Part shown: piece by piece, positions 3,372 through 24,890 of the stretch
Numbering within the stretch: position 1 is the stretch's first letter
How the letters are laid out: every line of letters starts with the position of its first letter
Origin: Tequatrovirus LF73P3
Strand: one strand, 5' to 3'
DNA: 64,000 nt
Sequence record: OZ035756.1
Program-made: the position numbers and the translations under genes
Notes under the pieces: generated by a model
What the model was told of the DNA's origin: nothing
Databases searched by the model: none
What the model saw: only the letters and a program-made list of their open reading frames with translations

Positions 3372-3631
3372 AAAAGATTCCTTTTAATGTATCTTTTAGA
3401 CCATTCTATCATATCATCATAATCTAAAAAGTATTCATCAAATTCAGCCATGCAAACAACGCCTTGTGCTGCTTTTGATGTGATATAAATTATTCCAACA
3501 TATCTAGAATCTTCTTCGGTATAATCAATGTTTGCTATGAATTCATCATTAATGTCAAATGTCGAAAACTTCACAGTATGCATCCTTAATACAAGATACA
3601 GCCATATCTTGTAATGATTTAGGTGTGTCAT
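3368..3631 (-). CDS. hypothetical protein (46.1 position); true start may be internal Met at 3583
   Basis: 87 aa ORF; 4-nt overlap with gene 46 start; N-terminus overlaps next ORF by 77 nt so a shorter product is likely. Confidence 0.45.
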   Translation of the reverse strand: MTHLNHYKIWLYLVLRMHTVKFSTFDINDEFIANIDYTEEDSRYVGIIYITSKAAQGVVCMAEFDEYFLDYDDMIEWSKRYIKRNLL

Positions 3632-3818
3632 TATCTAAAATGTTGAAGTTAAAAGATACTGCCCAGTCAGTGCAGACCGTAACCTTTTTAATACAATTAT
3701 CTTCAACCTCTAGCGGTTCAAACCAATATTCAATAATTTCTTTATGCCCAATATCATCTTTTACTTCGCATTCAAAATGCTGACTCATCATAACATTTTT
3801 AAATTCATCAAAAGTCAT
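3555..3818 (-). CDS. hypothetical protein (46.2 position)
   Basis: 87 aa ORF, ATGA-type overlap with gene 47 stop. Confidence 0.5.
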   Translation of the reverse strand: MTFDEFKNVMMSQHFECEVKDDIGHKEIIEYWFEPLEVEDNCIKKVTVCTDWAVSFNFNILDNDTPKSLQDMAVSCIKDAYCEVFDI

Positions 3819-4834
3819 TGTGTTGCCTCTACATATAACTGATTTGCATATTGAATAAGTGCTTCGCGATCAGAATCAGTGATGTCTGGAATTGCATTAA
3901 TGTATTCTTCCATCAACGTCTGAAGAGATTGAACTTCCACTTCTTCGTTATCATCTGATTCGACAGAGTTATCAATCTTTGACACAACTCGTAATGAATG
4001 CACAACTTTTTCTAGTTCAGATTCGAACTTCGTTAGATTTTTGTCTACCTCAGTTACTATAACACGTACTGATAGATTTGTAAAATCTTTATAGTCAATT
4101 TTTCCCTTAAATGGATATTGAATTCGACGATGCCAGGTAGTGTTGTTTGGAATAAATTCCATTCGTTCTGTTTCTGTATCAAACATCCAGAACCCACGAG
4201 GGTCATTCTCGTCACCTGCAGTTAGTGTCCATGGTGTCCCAATATATCTGACGTTAGCAGCCTCAGAGATAGTATGGAAGTGACCAGACCACACTTCTTT
4301 ATAAGTCTTAAGGAAATCAGGTTCAAGACCATGAGATTTCATTCCTTTATAAAAATAAAATCCATTCAGTTCCCAGTGACCAACACAAAAAGAAGCAGAT
4401 GAAGTTTTGATGTGTTCAAGAATTTCACCAGTATTTTCTTCACACATCCAAGGAATTAAATCAATCAAACATCCGTCAAAATCTACTGTAGTAGGCTTAT
4501 CATATACTTTAACATTAGGATATTTAGCCAAAAGTTCAGTAGAAGCATTTGGATGCATTACATTTTTGTAGTGGAGATCGTGATTTCCTACAATAGTATG
4601 TAATGTGATTCCAGCACCATCAAGCATTTGAACTATTTCACGGGCAAACTCCATAGTTTTATGCGTGATCGCTTTTCGTACATCAAAAATATCACCGTAT
4701 TGAATCCATACCGTAATTCCATTTTTCTTAGAATATTCTATCGCTTGCTTAATTCCATCAATTTGAATACCGCGAATCCACTCATCATCAGCTTTAACGC
4801 CTAAATGCCAATCACCTAAATTTAAAATTTTCAT
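3815..4834 (-). CDS. 47: recombination endonuclease subunit gp47 (Mre11/SbcD-like phosphoesterase)
   Basis: 339 aa, MKILNLGDWHLG...GNHD calcineurin-like phosphoesterase motifs. Confidence 0.92.
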   Translation of the reverse strand: MKILNLGDWHLGVKADDEWIRGIQIDGIKQAIEYSKKNGITVWIQYGDIFDVRKAITHKTMEFAREIVQMLDGAGITLHTIVGNHDLHYKNVMHPNASTELLAKYPNVKVYDKPTTVDFDGCLIDLIPWMCEENTGEILEHIKTSSASFCVGHWELNGFYFYKGMKSHGLEPDFLKTYKEVWSGHFHTISEAANVRYIGTPWTLTAGDENDPRGFWMFDTETERMEFIPNNTTWHRRIQYPFKGKIDYKDFTNLSVRVIVTEVDKNLTKFESELEKVVHSLRVVSKIDNSVESDDNEEVEVQSLQTLMEEYINAIPDITDSDREALIQYANQLYVEATQ

Positions 4835-19786: not shown

Positions 19787-20773
19787 TTATTTCAGAAGAG
19801 TAACCTCAGCGATTTCTTGCCAACCGTTTTTGTCGGTCATAATAAAGTCAGCAAGATAAAGAGCAGTACGCAGTGAAACATTGCGTAAACGATTAACATT
19901 AACTTTCATCCATGATAATGCTTTATAAGTTTCTTCATCAGAAAGACCGCGCTTTTGCATCATGTCAGTTGAAAGAATAACATCTTCAACCCTGACCATA
20001 ATTTCTTCATTAGTGTGAACACCCAAATCCAAATAAACCGAGCGGGACACTAATGCTTGTAAATGTGGAGCAAGTTTAGTACCACGGTCTAATTCGCGGT
20101 CAATGTCAACGTTTGTGATAAAAACAATCGTTCCTTTAAATTCAAACTCACGGTCAATGCCTTTTTCTTCTAAGTAAGAAGATGCAGTGCTCCAGCAGAC
20201 TTTACGGGTCTCTCCAGTGTCCAGAGCAGCTTTTAGAAGATTAAGAATGTCCATATCAGAGAAAACATCCACATCATCAATCAAAAGGACAGAATTCTCT
20301 TCACGATTATTCCAAAGCTGCTCATAAAGACCAATACCAGAGATTTTACCATTAATGCTTTTATATTCAATGTATCCGTTATCATTTGCTTTATTTAAAG
20401 CTTTATCTAAAGAATACGTTTTACCAATACCTGCTGCGCCAGAGATAATTAATGAACGAATATTTCCATTAATAATACCATTCGTCATCATTCCCATAAC
20501 ATTAAATCTTTTATTAATGCGGGTTTTCATATCTTCATATGATTCTTTAACTTCTTCAACTTTTACACCATCATATGAAATATCTGATTTGTAAACCCAA
20601 ACACCGCGACGTTTACCGTCAATTTCAACAAAAACTTTACCATCTCCTTGTGCATCTACCGGAGCATTATCTGGGAACCATTCGCCTAAGAGCTCAAAAG
20701 TTCCAGAGATTTCTTTACCGAAGTAGATACCCTTATTGATAGTTACAGTTTTCATTTTATTCTCCAATTTCAC
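19787..20773 (-). CDS. P-loop NTPase (AAA-like ATPase) of unknown role
   Basis: 328 aa; Walker A GAAGIGKT and Walker B VLLIDDVD. Confidence 0.65.
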   Translation of the reverse strand: MKLENKMKTVTINKGIYFGKEISGTFELLGEWFPDNAPVDAQGDGKVFVEIDGKRRGVWVYKSDISYDGVKVEEVKESYEDMKTRINKRFNVMGMMTNGIINGNIRSLIISGAAGIGKTYSLDKALNKANDNGYIEYKSINGKISGIGLYEQLWNNREENSVLLIDDVDVFSDMDILNLLKAALDTGETRKVCWSTASSYLEEKGIDREFEFKGTIVFITNVDIDRELDRGTKLAPHLQALVSRSVYLDLGVHTNEEIMVRVEDVILSTDMMQKRGLSDEETYKALSWMKVNVNRLRNVSLRTALYLADFIMTDKNGWQEIAEVTLLK

Positions 20774-20789
20774 ATTTGTTTTGATAGGG

Positions 20790-20823
20790 TAATAGTATCA
20801 CACTACTACCCTACTGTAAACAA
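20790..20823 (-). promoter_or_regulatory. early sigma70-type promoter candidate
   Basis: Minus strand GTTTAC with downstream TA-rich -10 region. Confidence 0.35.
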
Positions 20824-20824
20824 T

Positions 20825-21088
20825 TTATTTTAATGTTTGCCAAATTTTTACTGCTTCGCGACGAGATACTTCTACAGCTCCAAGTTCTACGGCTTTTTGG
20901 CGTCGGCGAGCATGTAAGTCATAATGTTTAATGCGTTTATCTTGAAACCAAGAACGTTTCATTCCTATTGCTTCTGCCATTTTATGAAGCTCTTCAATAT
21001 CTCCATCAGTGAACATATGACAATTTTTAGTTGGATGACCGCGAAGTTTCCATCCATGATTCATTAAAACATCTACGTAAACTGTCAT
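20825..21088 (-). CDS. hypothetical protein
   Basis: 87 aa, MTVYVDVLMNHGWKLRGHPTKNCHM... Confidence 0.5.
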   Translation of the reverse strand: MTVYVDVLMNHGWKLRGHPTKNCHMFTDGDIEELHKMAEAIGMKRSWFQDKRIKHYDLHARRRQKAVELGAVEVSRREAVKIWQTLK

Positions 21089-21279
21089 TGATTCTGCTCC
21101 AAATATGTTTCTATAATTTTCTGAGCGAGATAAACTGCGTTATCTTCAGTTGCATCTTCTAAGAAATTTTCAAAATAAGCTGAAATTTCTTCTGTGTCAA
21201 TCAACTTTTTTACTTCAATTAACGTAGTTTTCATTTTATTCCCCCAAATCCGTATCAGTTGATAGTTGTATAGTACCAC
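21085..21279 (-). CDS. hypothetical acidic protein
   Basis: 64 aa ORF directly after promoter at 21267-21300. Confidence 0.45.
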   Translation of the reverse strand: MVLYNYQLIRIWGNKMKTTLIEVKKLIDTEEISAYFENFLEDATEDNAVYLAQKIIETYLEQNQ

Positions 21280-21300
21280 AGTATGCTTTGGTTGTAAACC
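21267..21300 (-). promoter_or_regulatory. early sigma70-type promoter (conserved core)
   Basis: Minus strand TTTTCACAAAACGGTTTAC...CTGTGGTACTATACAACTATCAAC. Confidence 0.5.
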
Positions 21301-21329
21301 GTTTTGTGAAAAAAATTTTGAAATAAAAA

Positions 21330-21357
21330 AGGGGACCTTAGAGGTCCCCTTGCGTTA
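21330..21357 (-). terminator. rho-independent terminator
   Basis: Minus strand AGGGGACC-UCUA-AGGUCCCCU followed by UUUUUU. Confidence 0.6.
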
Positions 21358-21359
21358 GT

Positions 21360-21845
21360 TTATACCATTTCTATTATGTGCATATTCTTTTTGCTGTCAA
21401 AATATATGCTTTTAACTGTTAACTCAGAATTAATTGGCAGTAAAAACTCTCTTTCATAATCTACCATACAAAGATTATCATAAAGTTTGTTAAGCTTATC
21501 ATCATCAGTTTGACCAGATTCTTCAATTGCGATTAAATTTTCTAAAATGTCAATCATGGCAGTCGAATAGTCAAAAACGTTTGCATTTTTTAACACTACT
21601 AAAACATTAGTCATATAGCGTTCTGCAGCAAACGTTTCAGCTATATGAGACTCACTGCTAAAGGAAGTTATTCTTTTAAATTTGATTCTCCTATTAACTT
21701 CAAACTTATAAGATAGCACTTCCTCTATTGTAAGTCCTCTAAAAAGTATGTCTTTAATCTCAAGTTTGTCTTTAATGTAATCATTAACACGCTTATGATT
21801 AAAATCATTAATTTTGTTGCCAAGGCATTGCATTAAAATATGCAT
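21360..21845 (-). CDS. hypothetical protein
   Basis: 161 aa ORF bracketed by promoter (21890) and terminator (21330). Confidence 0.55.
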   Translation of the reverse strand: MHILMQCLGNKINDFNHKRVNDYIKDKLEIKDILFRGLTIEEVLSYKFEVNRRIKFKRITSFSSESHIAETFAAERYMTNVLVVLKNANVFDYSTAMIDILENLIAIEESGQTDDDKLNKLYDNLCMVDYEREFLLPINSELTVKSIYFDSKKNMHIIEMV

Positions 21846-21889: not shown

Positions 21890-21924
21890 TATATTATAAT
21901 ATGCTTTGCGGTAGAAGTAAACAA
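21890..21924 (-). promoter_or_regulatory. early sigma70-type promoter
   Basis: Minus strand GTTTAC + spacer + TATTATAAT. Confidence 0.5.
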
Positions 21925-21951
21925 CTTTGTGAAAAAATTTTGAAATAAAAA

Positions 21952-21976
21952 GGGAGCCCGAAGGCTCCCTATCATT
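21952..21976 (-). terminator. rho-independent terminator
   Basis: Minus strand GGGAGCC-UUCG-GGCUCCC followed by UUUUU. Confidence 0.6.
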
Positions 21977-22985
21977 TATAATAACTTCGATGGTTTTCAA
22001 GATAAACCCTCTCAAGGAAGTCATCCCAGAAACCCATGTCTACTTTTTGCTGCATACCGTTCTTAGAAGCTTCAATGGATGCTGCTTCTACTTGATCGAC
22101 CACATCTTCCAAAAACTCTTGAACAGTTTTAAATGGATGTTTACCCAACTTCACGTCGAGAATAAATGGAGCGTCTTGAAGTGGATAGACTAAGTCACCA
22201 GTTTTGTAAATTTCCAATAGTTGGAGTCCACCACGGCAAGCATGACTCAGAGCTTTCCAGTCAATGCCCTCATTCGCTTCAGCCTTACGAGCACGTTCGC
22301 CGTATTCAGCATCAAGTTTATTCAAAGATTGCTTAAGCTCGATAAGAGAAAGCGTTGTCTGATATTTACGACCCAACACAGTGTAGAACGTTTGTGGACC
22401 TGTTTTCTCATGATTATGGAACACCCATTCACAGAATTCGTTCTCTGGAAGACGATGCTTAATATCTTCAATCTTAGTTCGACGTTGCTTAATGGAACCG
22501 TCTTCTTGATAATCAACCCACTGATCAGGGATTTGATTAACTACTTTCAATACATCACGTAATGCGGCCAAACGAGAACCCTTAACACCGTATTTAGAAG
22601 CTTGCTTGCGAACATATCCTAAGTAGGATTTCATGTTAGTCGTATAAAAACGAGAACGATTGTCTTGAATAAACTTCCATACATCAGGCAAATCAGATTT
22701 AACTACCAGTTCAGGTGGAGTGTGGAGCATATCCAATGCTACAGTTTCACCATCTGCTGCTAATTTAAAGAAATACTTAAGACTGTATAGTTCATGGTCA
22801 ATATCATCTTTAGTGTTTTTAGATGATGTGTTGTTAGTGTTTTTACTCATATGCTCTTTAACATTTCCGATAAGAATATCACGAGCAGGAGGAACAAAGA
22901 TTTCTTTAAAATCTACATCAGATTCTGGAGTAGAAGTTCCATAAAGATGACTACCAAAATAGCTTTTCATTACTGTTTTCATCAT
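21972..22985 (-). CDS. putative nucleotidyltransferase (Pol-beta superfamily fold) with C-terminal helical domain
   Basis: 337 aa; N-terminal FGSHLYGTSTPESDVDF (GS-x9-SDhD) and downstream ALDMLH acidic motif. Confidence 0.6.
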   Translation of the reverse strand: MMKTVMKSYFGSHLYGTSTPESDVDFKEIFVPPARDILIGNVKEHMSKNTNNTSSKNTKDDIDHELYSLKYFFKLAADGETVALDMLHTPPELVVKSDLPDVWKFIQDNRSRFYTTNMKSYLGYVRKQASKYGVKGSRLAALRDVLKVVNQIPDQWVDYQEDGSIKQRRTKIEDIKHRLPENEFCEWVFHNHEKTGPQTFYTVLGRKYQTTLSLIELKQSLNKLDAEYGERARKAEANEGIDWKALSHACRGGLQLLEIYKTGDLVYPLQDAPFILDVKLGKHPFKTVQEFLEDVVDQVEAASIEASKNGMQQKVDMGFWDDFLERVYLENHRSYYK

Positions 22986-23467
22986 TCAGCCTTATATTCA
23001 ATAACAGGACATACTTTAGCTTTACGCGCTTTTAAAAATTCGACGATAATAGATTTCTTGGGTTGAATAGGCTCAAGTCCATTTTTGATTCGTTCTTCGT
23101 TTTGTACAATGAGCTCAATTTCTTTATTGAGCTTTCGGTCGTTATATTTGTCTAACAACCAGGAAGGACCAATTACCGCCCCGACAGCAATAAGAACCAT
23201 GACCGATAATGCTAAAATGCCTATACCAATTGAAGCTGGAATTAATGTCCATAGACTACTAAAGACAAAGAATTTAATTAAAATTTCTTGGCCAATTATT
23301 GCAGCACCTGTTAAAGTTGCAAATCCAACAATTGAAACCGCTAATACCGGGAGAAACGTTTTCCAAAAATAAGCACATAACGTTTTTGGACGATTCCATG
23401 TGCTGTTAAATGCCGAGTAAATTTTAAAGTGCCAAGAGTTTTCATTAATAATCATAATTATAATCAT
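22982..23467 (-). CDS. membrane protein (2 predicted TM helices) coupled to the NTase gene
   Basis: 161 aa; hydrophobic FLPVLAVSIVGFATLTGAAIIG and IGIGILALSVMVLIAVGAVIG; ATGA overlap with downstream gene. Confidence 0.5.
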   Translation of the reverse strand: MIIIMIINENSWHFKIYSAFNSTWNRPKTLCAYFWKTFLPVLAVSIVGFATLTGAAIIGQEILIKFFVFSSLWTLIPASIGIGILALSVMVLIAVGAVIGPSWLLDKYNDRKLNKEIELIVQNEERIKNGLEPIQPKKSIIVEFLKARKAKVCPVIEYKAE

Positions 23468-23985
23468 CCTTTCATTGAAGGTGTAACAGTTGTTAAATAC
23501 TTAATCATAGCTTCAGCTTCTGATTTTGATAATGAAATTTCTCCATTGTTTTGACGAATAGAAATAAAATCCGGATGACGGTCACCACCAGCTTTTAAAA
23601 CACACATATAAGTATCAGTTTCATCTTCAATATCTGAAATGATTGAAGCAGTTCCACATGAATGTGGTTTTTGATAAATCAATACAGCTTTTCTTCCACC
23701 GTTTGACTGCTCATAAACTTTTAACACATCAAACAAATCACTTCTTTTATCAATAGCTAAGATGTTGTTTTCATCTTCAATGTTAAATCCTTCGGATACT
23801 TCATAAAGTGTCACCCATAAATCACCAATATCAATAACAGCGTTCACTTTTCCATGACTTTCAAGAGCATTACAAATTTTCTTAATTTCATCATAACTCA
23901 TTTTAATAATATCATCTCCTTGAATAAAGAAGATGTCATTTTTAAATTCAACGCGAATTAAACCACTTTCACTTGAAATAAACAT
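23464..23985 (-). CDS. hypothetical protein, paralog of 23992-24549
   Basis: 173 aa; C-terminal SKSEAEAMIKYLTTVTPSM resembles neighbour's TKDEAIALKTYLDSVIPTM. Confidence 0.55.
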   Translation of the reverse strand: MFISSESGLIRVEFKNDIFFIQGDDIIKMSYDEIKKICNALESHGKVNAVIDIGDLWVTLYEVSEGFNIEDENNILAIDKRSDLFDVLKVYEQSNGGRKAVLIYQKPHSCGTASIISDIEDETDTYMCVLKAGGDRHPDFISIRQNNGEISLSKSEAEAMIKYLTTVTPSMKG

Positions 23986-23991
23986 ATTTCC

Positions 23992-24549
23992 TCACTTTGA
24001 AATCATAGTTGGAATGACAGAATCAAGATAAGTCTTTAGCGCAATAGCTTCGTCTTTGGTAAATGTGACAATATATGAACGAAAATCATCAATTTGACGA
24101 ATAGTTAAGACATCTCCATCTTCATAACATTTTGATACATTTAAAACAGTTTCATCATTTTGATTGCAAGCGTTAGTAATAATAGCATTGCAATTTTTGA
24201 GCCATTTTAAACTATGTTTTCTTTCATTAGAATAATAAAAATATTTAATCTTATCTATAAAACTATCCCAATGGATAACTGATAAACACATTGACTCACT
24301 TTTAATATTAAATCCTGGGCATGAAGAATAAAAATGAATTTTGTGCTCATCATTGATGCTTACTATTTTATCAGTATAAGGATATTCTATTTGGATTAAA
24401 TGAATGATTTCACTAGGCGTAAAATATAGCATATCGTCTTCTTGCGTCAAACGATACATGTTATTTACTTTTTCTATAGCCAATTCACCAAAAAGCGGAC
24501 TAACTTCTAATACTAATCGTTTCATATTGATTCTCTTCGACTCACTCAC
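23992..24549 (-). CDS. hypothetical protein, paralog of 23464-23985
   Basis: 185 aa ORF. Confidence 0.55.
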   Translation of the reverse strand: MSESKRINMKRLVLEVSPLFGELAIEKVNNMYRLTQEDDMLYFTPSEIIHLIQIEYPYTDKIVSINDEHKIHFYSSCPGFNIKSESMCLSVIHWDSFIDKIKYFYYSNERKHSLKWLKNCNAIITNACNQNDETVLNVSKCYEDGDVLTIRQIDDFRSYIVTFTKDEAIALKTYLDSVIPTMISK

Positions 24550-24686
24550 AATTACATACTCCTTTGAATAATATCAATAATGTTGTTCACCAGATTATAA
24601 GTAAACATTGGATAATTATATTGAATCATCACATACACAACAAACAAAACTTTCATTCTCTTCTCCTTGGCAGTTGACAAGATTAC

Positions 24687-24890
24687 TATATCATAACCTT
24701 GCCAACTTGTAAACCATTAAATGACGTTTTCAATAAAATTCTGAAGCTTTGTGTGAGCATCAACCATGATTTTCATTTCTTCCTTTGCGAAAGCTGTACC
24801 TCTTTCTCGAGCAGAATACTCATAGTCAGAAACTGCATTAGCATATTCTTCAATTAGCTTCATTAAAAACATCTGCTTTTCAGTTTTCAT
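24687..24890 (-). CDS. hypothetical small helical protein (67 aa), absent from supplied ORF track
   Basis: Hand translation MKTEKQMFLMKLIEEYANAVSDYEYSARERGTAFAKEEMKIMVDAHTKLQ...; RBS AGGTGGA 4 nt upstream. Confidence 0.35.

Follow-up and report, generated by a model that had tools for sequence, protein, structure and literature searches.

A T4 nrdC.11-type nucleotidyltransferase gene of Tequatrovirus LF73P3, coupled to a membrane-protein gene whose relatives recur upstream of RNA end-repair genes

We analyzed a 64,000-nt stretch of Tequatrovirus LF73P3 (OZ035756.1; hereafter the window, whose positions serve as coordinates throughout), in which a gene for a 337-amino-acid (aa) nucleotidyltransferase (NTase) is translationally coupled to a preceding gene for a membrane protein with two transmembrane (TM) helices. 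The NTase gene is a known one, near-identical to the annotated T4 nrdC.11, and its family chemistry was reported in 2025; judged by its sequence, it is the T-even orthologue of nrdC.11 and a member of the RlaP family within the DNA polymerase beta (Pol-beta) superfamily. The membrane protein, which belongs to the family phrog_944, probably serves phage RNA repair as an optional accessory, because in other phages its relatives immediately precede many further RNA end-repair enzymes. We consider it fairly likely that the locus as a whole consists of an RlaP-type NTase for RNA-end repair and an optional accessory membrane protein.

The nucleotidyltransferase belongs to the RlaP family

The 337-aa protein starts MMKTVMKSYFGSHLYGTSTPESDVDFKEIF and carries G11-S12-x9-S22-D23-V24-D25 followed by A83-L84-D85-M86-L87-H88, which are the residues of the minimal NTase signature (GS-x9-SDhD plus ALDMLH) on which the original prediction for this locus was built. 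In Pfam, the protein matched PF10127, 'RlaP, RNA repair pathway DNA polymerase beta family' (E = 3.4e-11; score 43.8 bits, gathering cut-off 23), with residues 7-135 aligned to profile positions 23-142. Because this match lies above the cut-off, the signature is not a chance resemblance. PF10127 was also present in all 120 close homologues listed, and no OAS or KNTase family was listed. The PHROGs match was phrog_388 'nucleotidyltransferase' (E = 2e-136), and the protein is identical to T4 NrdC.11 at 329 of 336 residues (97.9%). RlaP relatives amounted to 3420 representatives at 50% clustering (E <= 1e-3). The Pol-beta/cGAS-DncV-like/OAS-like layout proposed in the original prediction was therefore borne out in part: the Pol-beta NTase stands, together with a predicted helical C-terminal region, and the cGAS/DncV/OAS-like affiliation gives way to RlaP.

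To assess residue conservation, we aligned 47 relatives with 34-55% identity. The results showed that G11, S12, G16, S22, D23, D25, N57, D63, Y132, K244, H248, R251, P268 and K279 were invariant, and D61 and D85 were kept in at least 90% of the relatives. The choice of the GS/DxD/D residues as catalytic agrees with this pattern. By the topology of Pol-beta NTases, D85 is likely the third catalytic carboxylate, and D63 is an additional candidate acidic ligand. The features of the gene are as follows.

21972-22985, minus strand: nrdC.11 orthologue, gene of the RlaP-family Pol-beta NTase, 337 aa (336 from the second ATG), from the open reading frame (ORF) list, Pfam, PHROGs and the T4 annotation.
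22911-22955, minus strand: codons G11-S12...S22-D23-V24-D25, the NTase glycine-serine plus DxD metal-binding motif, from the sequence and the 47-relative alignment.
22731-22733, minus strand: codon of D85 (in TVALDMLH), likely the third catalytic carboxylate on a beta-strand, at least 90% conserved.
22797-22799, minus strand: codon of the invariant D63 (100% of the alignment), an alternative or additional acidic residue.

An AlphaFold2 model of the NTase, computed from a shallow alignment (homologues of 78-99% identity), reached a predicted local distance difference test (pLDDT) score of 57.7, with the N-terminal domain below 50 and residues 100-337 predicted helical. Foldseek of this poor model against the PDB returned formin FH2 domains at the top (E about 0.1), which is not meaningful. 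Additionally, a sequence search and a profile search of the PDB found no RlaP structure.

Known RlaP chemistry and the proposed activity of NrdC.11

The repair of tRNA damaged by anticodon nucleases has its classic model in the T-even phages, and Rnl1, Rnl2 and Pnk are encoded elsewhere in T-even genomes. The RlaP family was reportedly defined by Burroughs and Aravind in 2016. T4 NrdC.11 itself was named RlaP in a PF10127 similarity network, where it fell into cluster 5 (PMC12776372, bioRxiv preprint, December 2025). In the same study, two Pseudomonas RlaPs (PfRlaP and PaRlaP) added 1-2 nucleoside monophosphates (NMPs) to RNA 3'-OH ends, showed no activity on DNA or protein, left E. coli proteins unlabelled, favored the 5' half of a cleaved-tRNA mimic and preferred Mn2+ or Co2+ (PMC12776372). 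The crystal structure of PfRlaP consists of two domains, an N-terminal NTase and a C-terminal helical one; aminoacylation was partly rescued when the lost anticodon-loop nucleotide was restored before ligation; and free cyclic or linear oligonucleotide products were not reported for the studied enzymes (PMC12776372). A jumbo-phage survey predicted that phage RlaPs replace nucleotides removed by RloC-type nucleases before ligation (PMC7824862). The T4 segment nrdC.11-mobD.3 is deletable in the laboratory (PMC9825161), as expected of an accessory counter-defence gene. In the literature searched, we found no experiment on NrdC.11 itself and no experimentally characterized T-even function for it, as the original prediction had supposed.

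By analogy with the Pseudomonas RlaPs, we infer that NrdC.11 would most likely use D23, D25 and D85 together with a divalent metal (Mn2+ being preferred in the studied enzymes) to add 1-2 untemplated NMPs to the 3'-OH of a broken RNA. The likely substrate would be the tRNA 5' half left behind when a host anticodon nuclease (RloC, for example) cleaves the anticodon loop and trims the cut end. The phage Pnk, Rnl1 and Rnl2 could then reseal a functional fraction of the tRNA and so sustain translation.

The NTase gene and the membrane gene overlap at the end of an operon

The region corresponds to the nrdC-mobD-rI part of the T4 map and is matched by hundreds of Tequatrovirus genomes (T2, T6, BW-1 and others). 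According to the ORF list, all genes of the stretch around the NTase and membrane genes lie on the minus strand.

22982-23467, minus strand: gene of the phrog_944 two-TM inner-membrane protein, a maximal ORF of 161 aa with a probable start at M5 (23455; 157 aa).
22982-22985, minus strand: ATGA start/stop overlap of the membrane gene and the NTase gene, read from the sequence, translational coupling.
21941-21970, minus strand: intrinsic terminator of the NTase gene, AGGGAGCC-TTCG-GGCTCCCT then TTTTATTT, one base past the NTase stop codon, with the hairpin at 21970-21951.
24685-24713, minus strand: best sigma-70-like promoter candidate upstream of a four-gene run, TTTACA-17-TATAGT with an extended TG, by consensus match only.

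The overlap noted in the original prediction was recovered at the nucleotide level: the NTase start codon ATG (22985-22983) shares two bases with the membrane-gene stop codon TGA (22984-22982), with the junction GCT GAA TGA and the ATG in the +1 frame. The same ATGA overlap was found in Tequatrovirus and Mosigvirus-like loci. The membrane gene in turn overlaps the 3' end of the y05I-like gene ahead of it (23464-23985, 173 aa), which is separated by 6 nt from a second y05I-like gene (23992-24549, 185 aa). Since the membrane gene overlaps its y05I-like neighbor, the junctions are tight and the best upstream promoter lies at 24713-24685, the NTase/membrane pair appears to close an operon made up of four or more genes. 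ATGA overlaps are frequent throughout this operon (ORF list). A regex search upstream of the pair for MotA-box middle promoters and TATAAATA late promoters returned none.

Both terminators placed by the original prediction near 21952-21976 and 21330-21357 were located, as hairpins with T-runs at 21970-21951 and 21351-21329 (both minus strand and intrinsic-terminator-like); in a terminator scan, 4.5 kb held 7 terminator-like sites against 1.5 expected from shuffles. The further claim, that the pair forms its own promoter-terminator cassette, did not hold. The sigma-70-like promoter between the two terminators (21921-21893) points at the next gene, 21360-21845, and not at the pair, which ends the operon described above.

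The two y05I-like genes (23464-23985 and 23992-24549, minus strand) form a tandem pair of paralogues within the y05I/MobD.1 family known from T4 (PF24449 + PF24448), which bears the label 'putative transcription factor'. T4 retains a single y05I/MobD.1 copy; the other was replaced by mobD along with the membrane gene.

The membrane protein is a phage-confined two-TM protein with conserved ends

The membrane protein matched phrog_944 (E = 1e-50) and has hydrophobic segments at about residues 37-59 and 72-101 (Kyte-Doolittle). Its AlphaFold2 model (pLDDT 77) is a long helical hairpin, in keeping with the two TM helices of the original prediction. In this model, strands at the N-terminus (residues 4-8) and the C-terminus (residues 155-159) are paired, so that the conserved ends of the protein make up one small cytoplasmic unit, and the strongly basic C-terminal tail fits an N-in/C-in topology. 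Homologue alignments and the spacing of an AAAGGA Shine-Dalgarno sequence favor the start at M5 (23455), giving 157 aa. In an alignment of 55 phrog_944 members, LCxYFWK sits just ahead of the first TM helix and KAKKxKxCP near the C-terminus.

23360-23443, minus strand: conserved cytoplasmic N-terminal motif NSWHYR...LCxYFWK, with C31, Y33, F34 and W35 invariant in the 55-member alignment.
23165-23359, minus strand: two TM helices (about 37-59 and 72-101) and a short loop, by Kyte-Doolittle, AlphaFold2 and alignments; the most variable part among T-even phages.
22994-23056, minus strand: conserved cytoplasmic C-terminal motif IIVEFLKAKKAKVCPxIE, with K151, C153 and P154 invariant in the 55-member alignment.

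Foldseek of the membrane model against viral structures found uncharacterized phage family members only, and the protein had no Pfam match, no PADLOC match (E <= 1) and no recognizable nucleotide-sensing domain. Among 185,579 prokaryotic species genomes (one genome per species), there was one match, on a 10-kb contig of a metagenome-assembled genome; the family thus belongs almost exclusively to phages. The 'LC' motif was not taken for a lipoprotein signal, the hydrophobic stretch lying after the Cys and not before it, and a holin seems unlikely in view of the early/middle-region position of the gene and its conserved cytoplasmic residues.

Among near-identical T-even phages, the membrane gene is also a hypervariable spot between conserved neighbors: out of 1300 matching records, just 9 had its allele at 95% identity or more, most being about 55% identical, compared with at least 95% identity of the NTase in 492 of 1517 records. 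The variation is concentrated in the TM/middle region, and the ends are conserved. The adjacent NTase is 95-99% identical in hundreds of records. On a metagenome contig (OBRH01000009.1, locus L169, 168,455 bp), we observed a membrane protein 100% identical to that of the window with the RlaP gene directly after it; this contig is probably the same phage or a near-identical one.

RlaP does not require the membrane partner

Seen from the NTase side, the membrane gene lay 0-1.8 kb upstream of the NTase gene in 45 of 78 IMG/VR loci, all of them closer T4-like relatives, and the direct overlap of the two genes was found only in E. coli T-even groups. T4 has no counterpart of window 22987-23966 and carries the HNH homing endonuclease gene mobD in place of the membrane gene and one y05I-like gene. 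Because T4 and distant RlaP-bearing phages lack the membrane gene, these results show that RlaP does not require a membrane partner and that the T4-like pairing is one inherited synteny.

In Vibrio and Klebsiella jumbo-type phages, whose RlaP homologues are distant, the genes preceding RlaP were compared with the membrane family and did not qualify as members (E > 0.5). In Acinetobacter phage Acj61 (L005), tandem membrane-family copies (3510-4004 and 4001-4390) lie between rI and nrdC.11.

Relatives of the membrane gene precede diverse RNA end-repair genes

The membrane family was grouped into 60 clusters (at least 50% identity), of which 47 had enough downstream flank and 48 enough upstream flank for a tally of same-strand neighbors within 2.5 kb. 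The results revealed an RNA end-repair gene downstream in 18 of 47 clusters compared with upstream in 4 of 48. In Pseudomonas phage K8 (Pakpunavirus, L004), a Rnl1-like RNA ligase gene lies 12 nt downstream of the membrane gene and is followed by an AAA_33 kinase gene, and in Aeromonas T4-like phages a PHA02142-OB/PF09414 RNA ligase follows the membrane gene, which has moved away from nrdC.11. Similarly, membrane-family genes were followed by a Rnl2-like ligase in a metagenomic phage (L053), a tRNA nucleotidyltransferase and then a ligase (L052), an unclassified Pol-beta-like NTase with the motif RSKQDFGDIDVLV (L010), Thg1 (L188; E = 4.5e-29), an RNase T-like exonuclease with a HAD phosphatase (L204), and a dNMP-kinase-like P-loop protein (ICP1). 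At one locus (L233), a cassette of HAD_PNKP phosphatase, AAA_33 kinase and Rnl1-like ligase begins 10 nt past the membrane gene. The immediate downstream neighbors at four loci were unclassified (L029, 305 aa; L068, 361 aa; L225, 268 aa; L238, 252 aa).

This neighborhood pattern suggests that the family plays an accessory part in phage RNA repair, though it is no proof of this; we put the chance of a real functional link between the membrane family and RNA repair at roughly even. Speculatively, the membrane protein, co-translated with the NTase, could act for example as a membrane anchor or regulator whose Cys/Lys-rich cytoplasmic mini-domain tethers repair enzymes at the inner membrane. More specifically, and as a possibility we regard as less likely than not, phrog_944 may be a dedicated, previously undescribed tRNA-repair component, with the mini-domain (two invariant Cys and a Lys-rich motif) recruiting, positioning or regulating the enzyme encoded after it, be it RlaP, an Rnl1, Rnl2 or PHA02142 ligase, PNKP, Thg1 or a CCA-type NTase.

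As separate observations, the gene order in K8 runs from the membrane gene through the Rnl1-like ligase and AAA_33 kinase to phosphoribosyl pyrophosphate (PRPP) synthetase and, further on, NAMPT, so that RNA-repair and nicotinamide adenine dinucleotide (NAD) salvage genes are clustered together there. Membrane-family genes also lie near PRPP synthetase and NAMPT (NAD salvage) genes in metagenome loci of the L194 type.

Evaluation of alternative explanations

Several findings weigh against an RlaP-type RNA-end repair NTase with an accessory membrane protein. As regards the enzyme, the literature searched contained no enzymology for any phage RlaP, the NTase model (pLDDT 57.7) was too poor for a fold test, and the Pseudomonas RlaPs fall into cluster 1a of the similarity network, apart from T4 NrdC.11 in cluster 5 (PMC12776372). 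The 64-kb window contained no ligase or Pnk relative, so the 'ligase-associating' context is absent here, and a ligase lay within 3.5 kb in 1 of the 78 related phage loci, the other 77 having neither an RNA ligase nor a Pnk gene beside nrdC.11; the RNA-ligase neighborhood is the origin of the RlaP name and not a requirement for membership. As regards the partner, 10 of the 18 positive clusters represent the single inherited T4-like RlaP synteny, about 60% of clusters had no RNA-repair neighbor, and nucleotide-metabolism enzymes abound in these early-gene regions, raising the rate of such neighbors expected by chance. In many T4-like phages, moreover, 1-3 small genes stand between the membrane gene and RlaP, and T4-type genomes as well as distant phages with RlaP lack the membrane gene.

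The alternative that survives best keeps the NTase as an RlaP for RNA repair and takes the membrane protein to be unrelated to it (a superinfection-exclusion, membrane-remodelling or other early membrane protein), with the coupling arising from tight gene packing. We regard this as a serious contender whose probability falls a little short of even. It draws on the intervening small genes and the clusters without RNA-repair neighbors just described, some family members standing instead beside primase, RuvC-like, sigma factor or PRPP synthetase genes; on T4, which swapped the membrane gene for mobD and kept nrdC.11; on the commonness of ATGA overlaps in the operon; and on the variability of the TM/middle region (most alleles about 55% identical against 95-99% for the NTase), which is typical of surface or arms-race proteins. 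However, it does not readily account for the seven further RNA end-repair families found immediately or a short way downstream, in separate lineages and without exception on the same strand, or for the asymmetry of 18 downstream against 4 upstream clusters. Some genomes carry the membrane gene 10 nt ahead of a full phosphatase-kinase-ligase cassette, and the conserved residues of the membrane protein are all cytoplasmic, none being periplasmic.

A second alternative is that the NTase modifies a target other than RNA (a host protein, an antitoxin-type substrate or a small molecule) in the manner of MntA/MenT-type or aminoglycoside-NTase-like enzymes, serving host takeover or anti-toxin action. 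Sub-threshold similarities around GS...DxD are compatible with it (NTP_transf_2, E = 0.069, residues 10-27; MntA, 13.2 bits against a cut-off of 60 in NCBIfam). These weak matches, however, span only the universal 18-residue motif, whereas the full N-terminal domain matches RlaP above threshold, and the Pseudomonas RlaPs label RNA but not E. coli proteins or DNA, so we consider this alternative improbable.

The least credible alternative, and the one favored by the original prediction, is a nucleotide-signalling module in which a second messenger made by a cGAS/DncV/OAS-like NTase gates the two-TM protein for counter-defence or host manipulation: Pol-beta motifs and a coupled small TM protein give the locus a superficial likeness to a cyclic-oligonucleotide-based antiphage signalling system (CBASS) with a TM effector, but the NTase had no SMODS, Mab-21, DncV or OAS Pfam match at E <= 0.1 and RlaP as its best family, neither protein matched any PADLOC model at E <= 1 (CBASS cyclases and effectors included), the studied RlaPs add NMPs to RNA ends with free oligonucleotide products not reported, and the TM protein, which has no recognizable nucleotide-sensing domain, occurs elsewhere without any NTase beside ligases, kinases and Thg1, just as the NTase occurs without the TM protein in T4 and distant phages. 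Both the sequence profiles and the gene context point to RNA repair rather than second messengers, and the membrane protein does not appear to be a nucleotide-activated effector.

Comparison with known systems

T4 NrdC.11 (NP_049709, 38.9 kDa, 'nucleotidyltransferase', nrdC-mobD region) occupies the same slot between nrdC.10 and mobD.1-like genes, on the same strand and with the same terminator. T4 differs in having the HNH homing endonuclease gene mobD upstream of nrdC.11, where the window has the two-TM gene and an extra y05I-like gene, and in lacking the ModB-like ADP-ribosyltransferase cassette and the DUF4031 gene found downstream in the window.

The RlaPs of Pseudomonas fluorescens and P. 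aeruginosa (PMC12776372) share with the phage protein the Pfam family, the N-terminal Pol-beta NTase and, as predicted, the helical C-terminal region and the addition of 1-2 NMPs to RNA 3'-OH ends ahead of ligation. In contrast to the phage gene, which has no adjacent ligase gene and is coupled to a membrane protein, the Pseudomonas genes lie between rtcB and rtcA.

The logic of T4 Pnk-Rnl1 against the PrrC anticodon nuclease is similar, in that the phage repairs a tRNA cleaved by the host, and members of the membrane family head Pnk-like/Rnl1-like cassettes elsewhere. The enzymes nevertheless differ, pseT and gene 63 lie outside the window, and RlaP would act before ligation and only after nucleotide loss. 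Phage CCA-adding enzymes/tRNA nucleotidyltransferases are also Pol-beta NTases that rebuild RNA 3' ends, and one lies downstream of a membrane-family member (L052), but they have a PF01743 head domain and act at the tRNA acceptor end, not at a broken anticodon loop. Finally, CBASS with a CD-NTase and a TM effector resembles the locus in placing the gene of a Pol-beta-fold NTase beside that of a small TM protein. It differs in that neither protein showed profile similarity to it and in that the TM gene here comes first and is dispensable; moreover, CBASS is a host defence, whereas the present genes are phage-encoded and the TM family also pairs with RNA-repair enzymes other than NTases.

Other genes around the locus

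The gene at 21360-21845 (minus strand) is intact, and its 161-aa product is a paralogue of the ModB-like ADP-ribosyltransferase kind (phrog_832, E = 5.8e-24) that shares about 30% identity with modB; the gene has its own sigma-70-like promoter (21921-21893) and terminator (21351-21329). Because a direct repeat of roughly 38 bp, the terminator foot included, flanks it (21296-21333 and 21917-21954), the gene resembles a cassette that was inserted. T4 lacks it, BW-1 has a frameshifted copy, and only 43 of 50,697 phage records contain it at 90% identity or above.

Window 20768-21225, between nrdC.10 and the intergenic terminator, is a segment missing from T4 and BW-1. On the minus strand, 20825-21088 and 21085-21279 encode an 87-aa DUF4031 protein (Pfam E = 1.6e-21) and a 64-aa ORF. 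Just downstream of the region, 19787-20773 (minus strand) encodes the NrdC.10 orthologue (328 aa, phrog_1250), a conserved T4-like gene with weak, sub-threshold STAND/AAA ATPase matches (nSTAND3, AAA_16 and AAA_22; E about 1e-4).

Significance

The membrane partner is the one new lead from this locus, and a modest one: its family recurs ahead of eight or more different families of RNA end-repair enzymes, and the literature searched contained no description of an association between phrog_944 and RNA repair. If the link is functional, it would add an unexpected membrane-associated component to repair and provide a handle for finding repair cassettes in metagenomes. If phrog_944 does recruit, position or regulate the enzyme encoded after it, phage tRNA repair would be organized at the inner membrane, or the protein may guard against tRNase toxins that enter through the membrane. 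The NTase, for its part, is useful as a direct test case, as an RlaP that replaces nucleotides lost to RloC-type trimming would complete the T-even tRNA-repair pathway.

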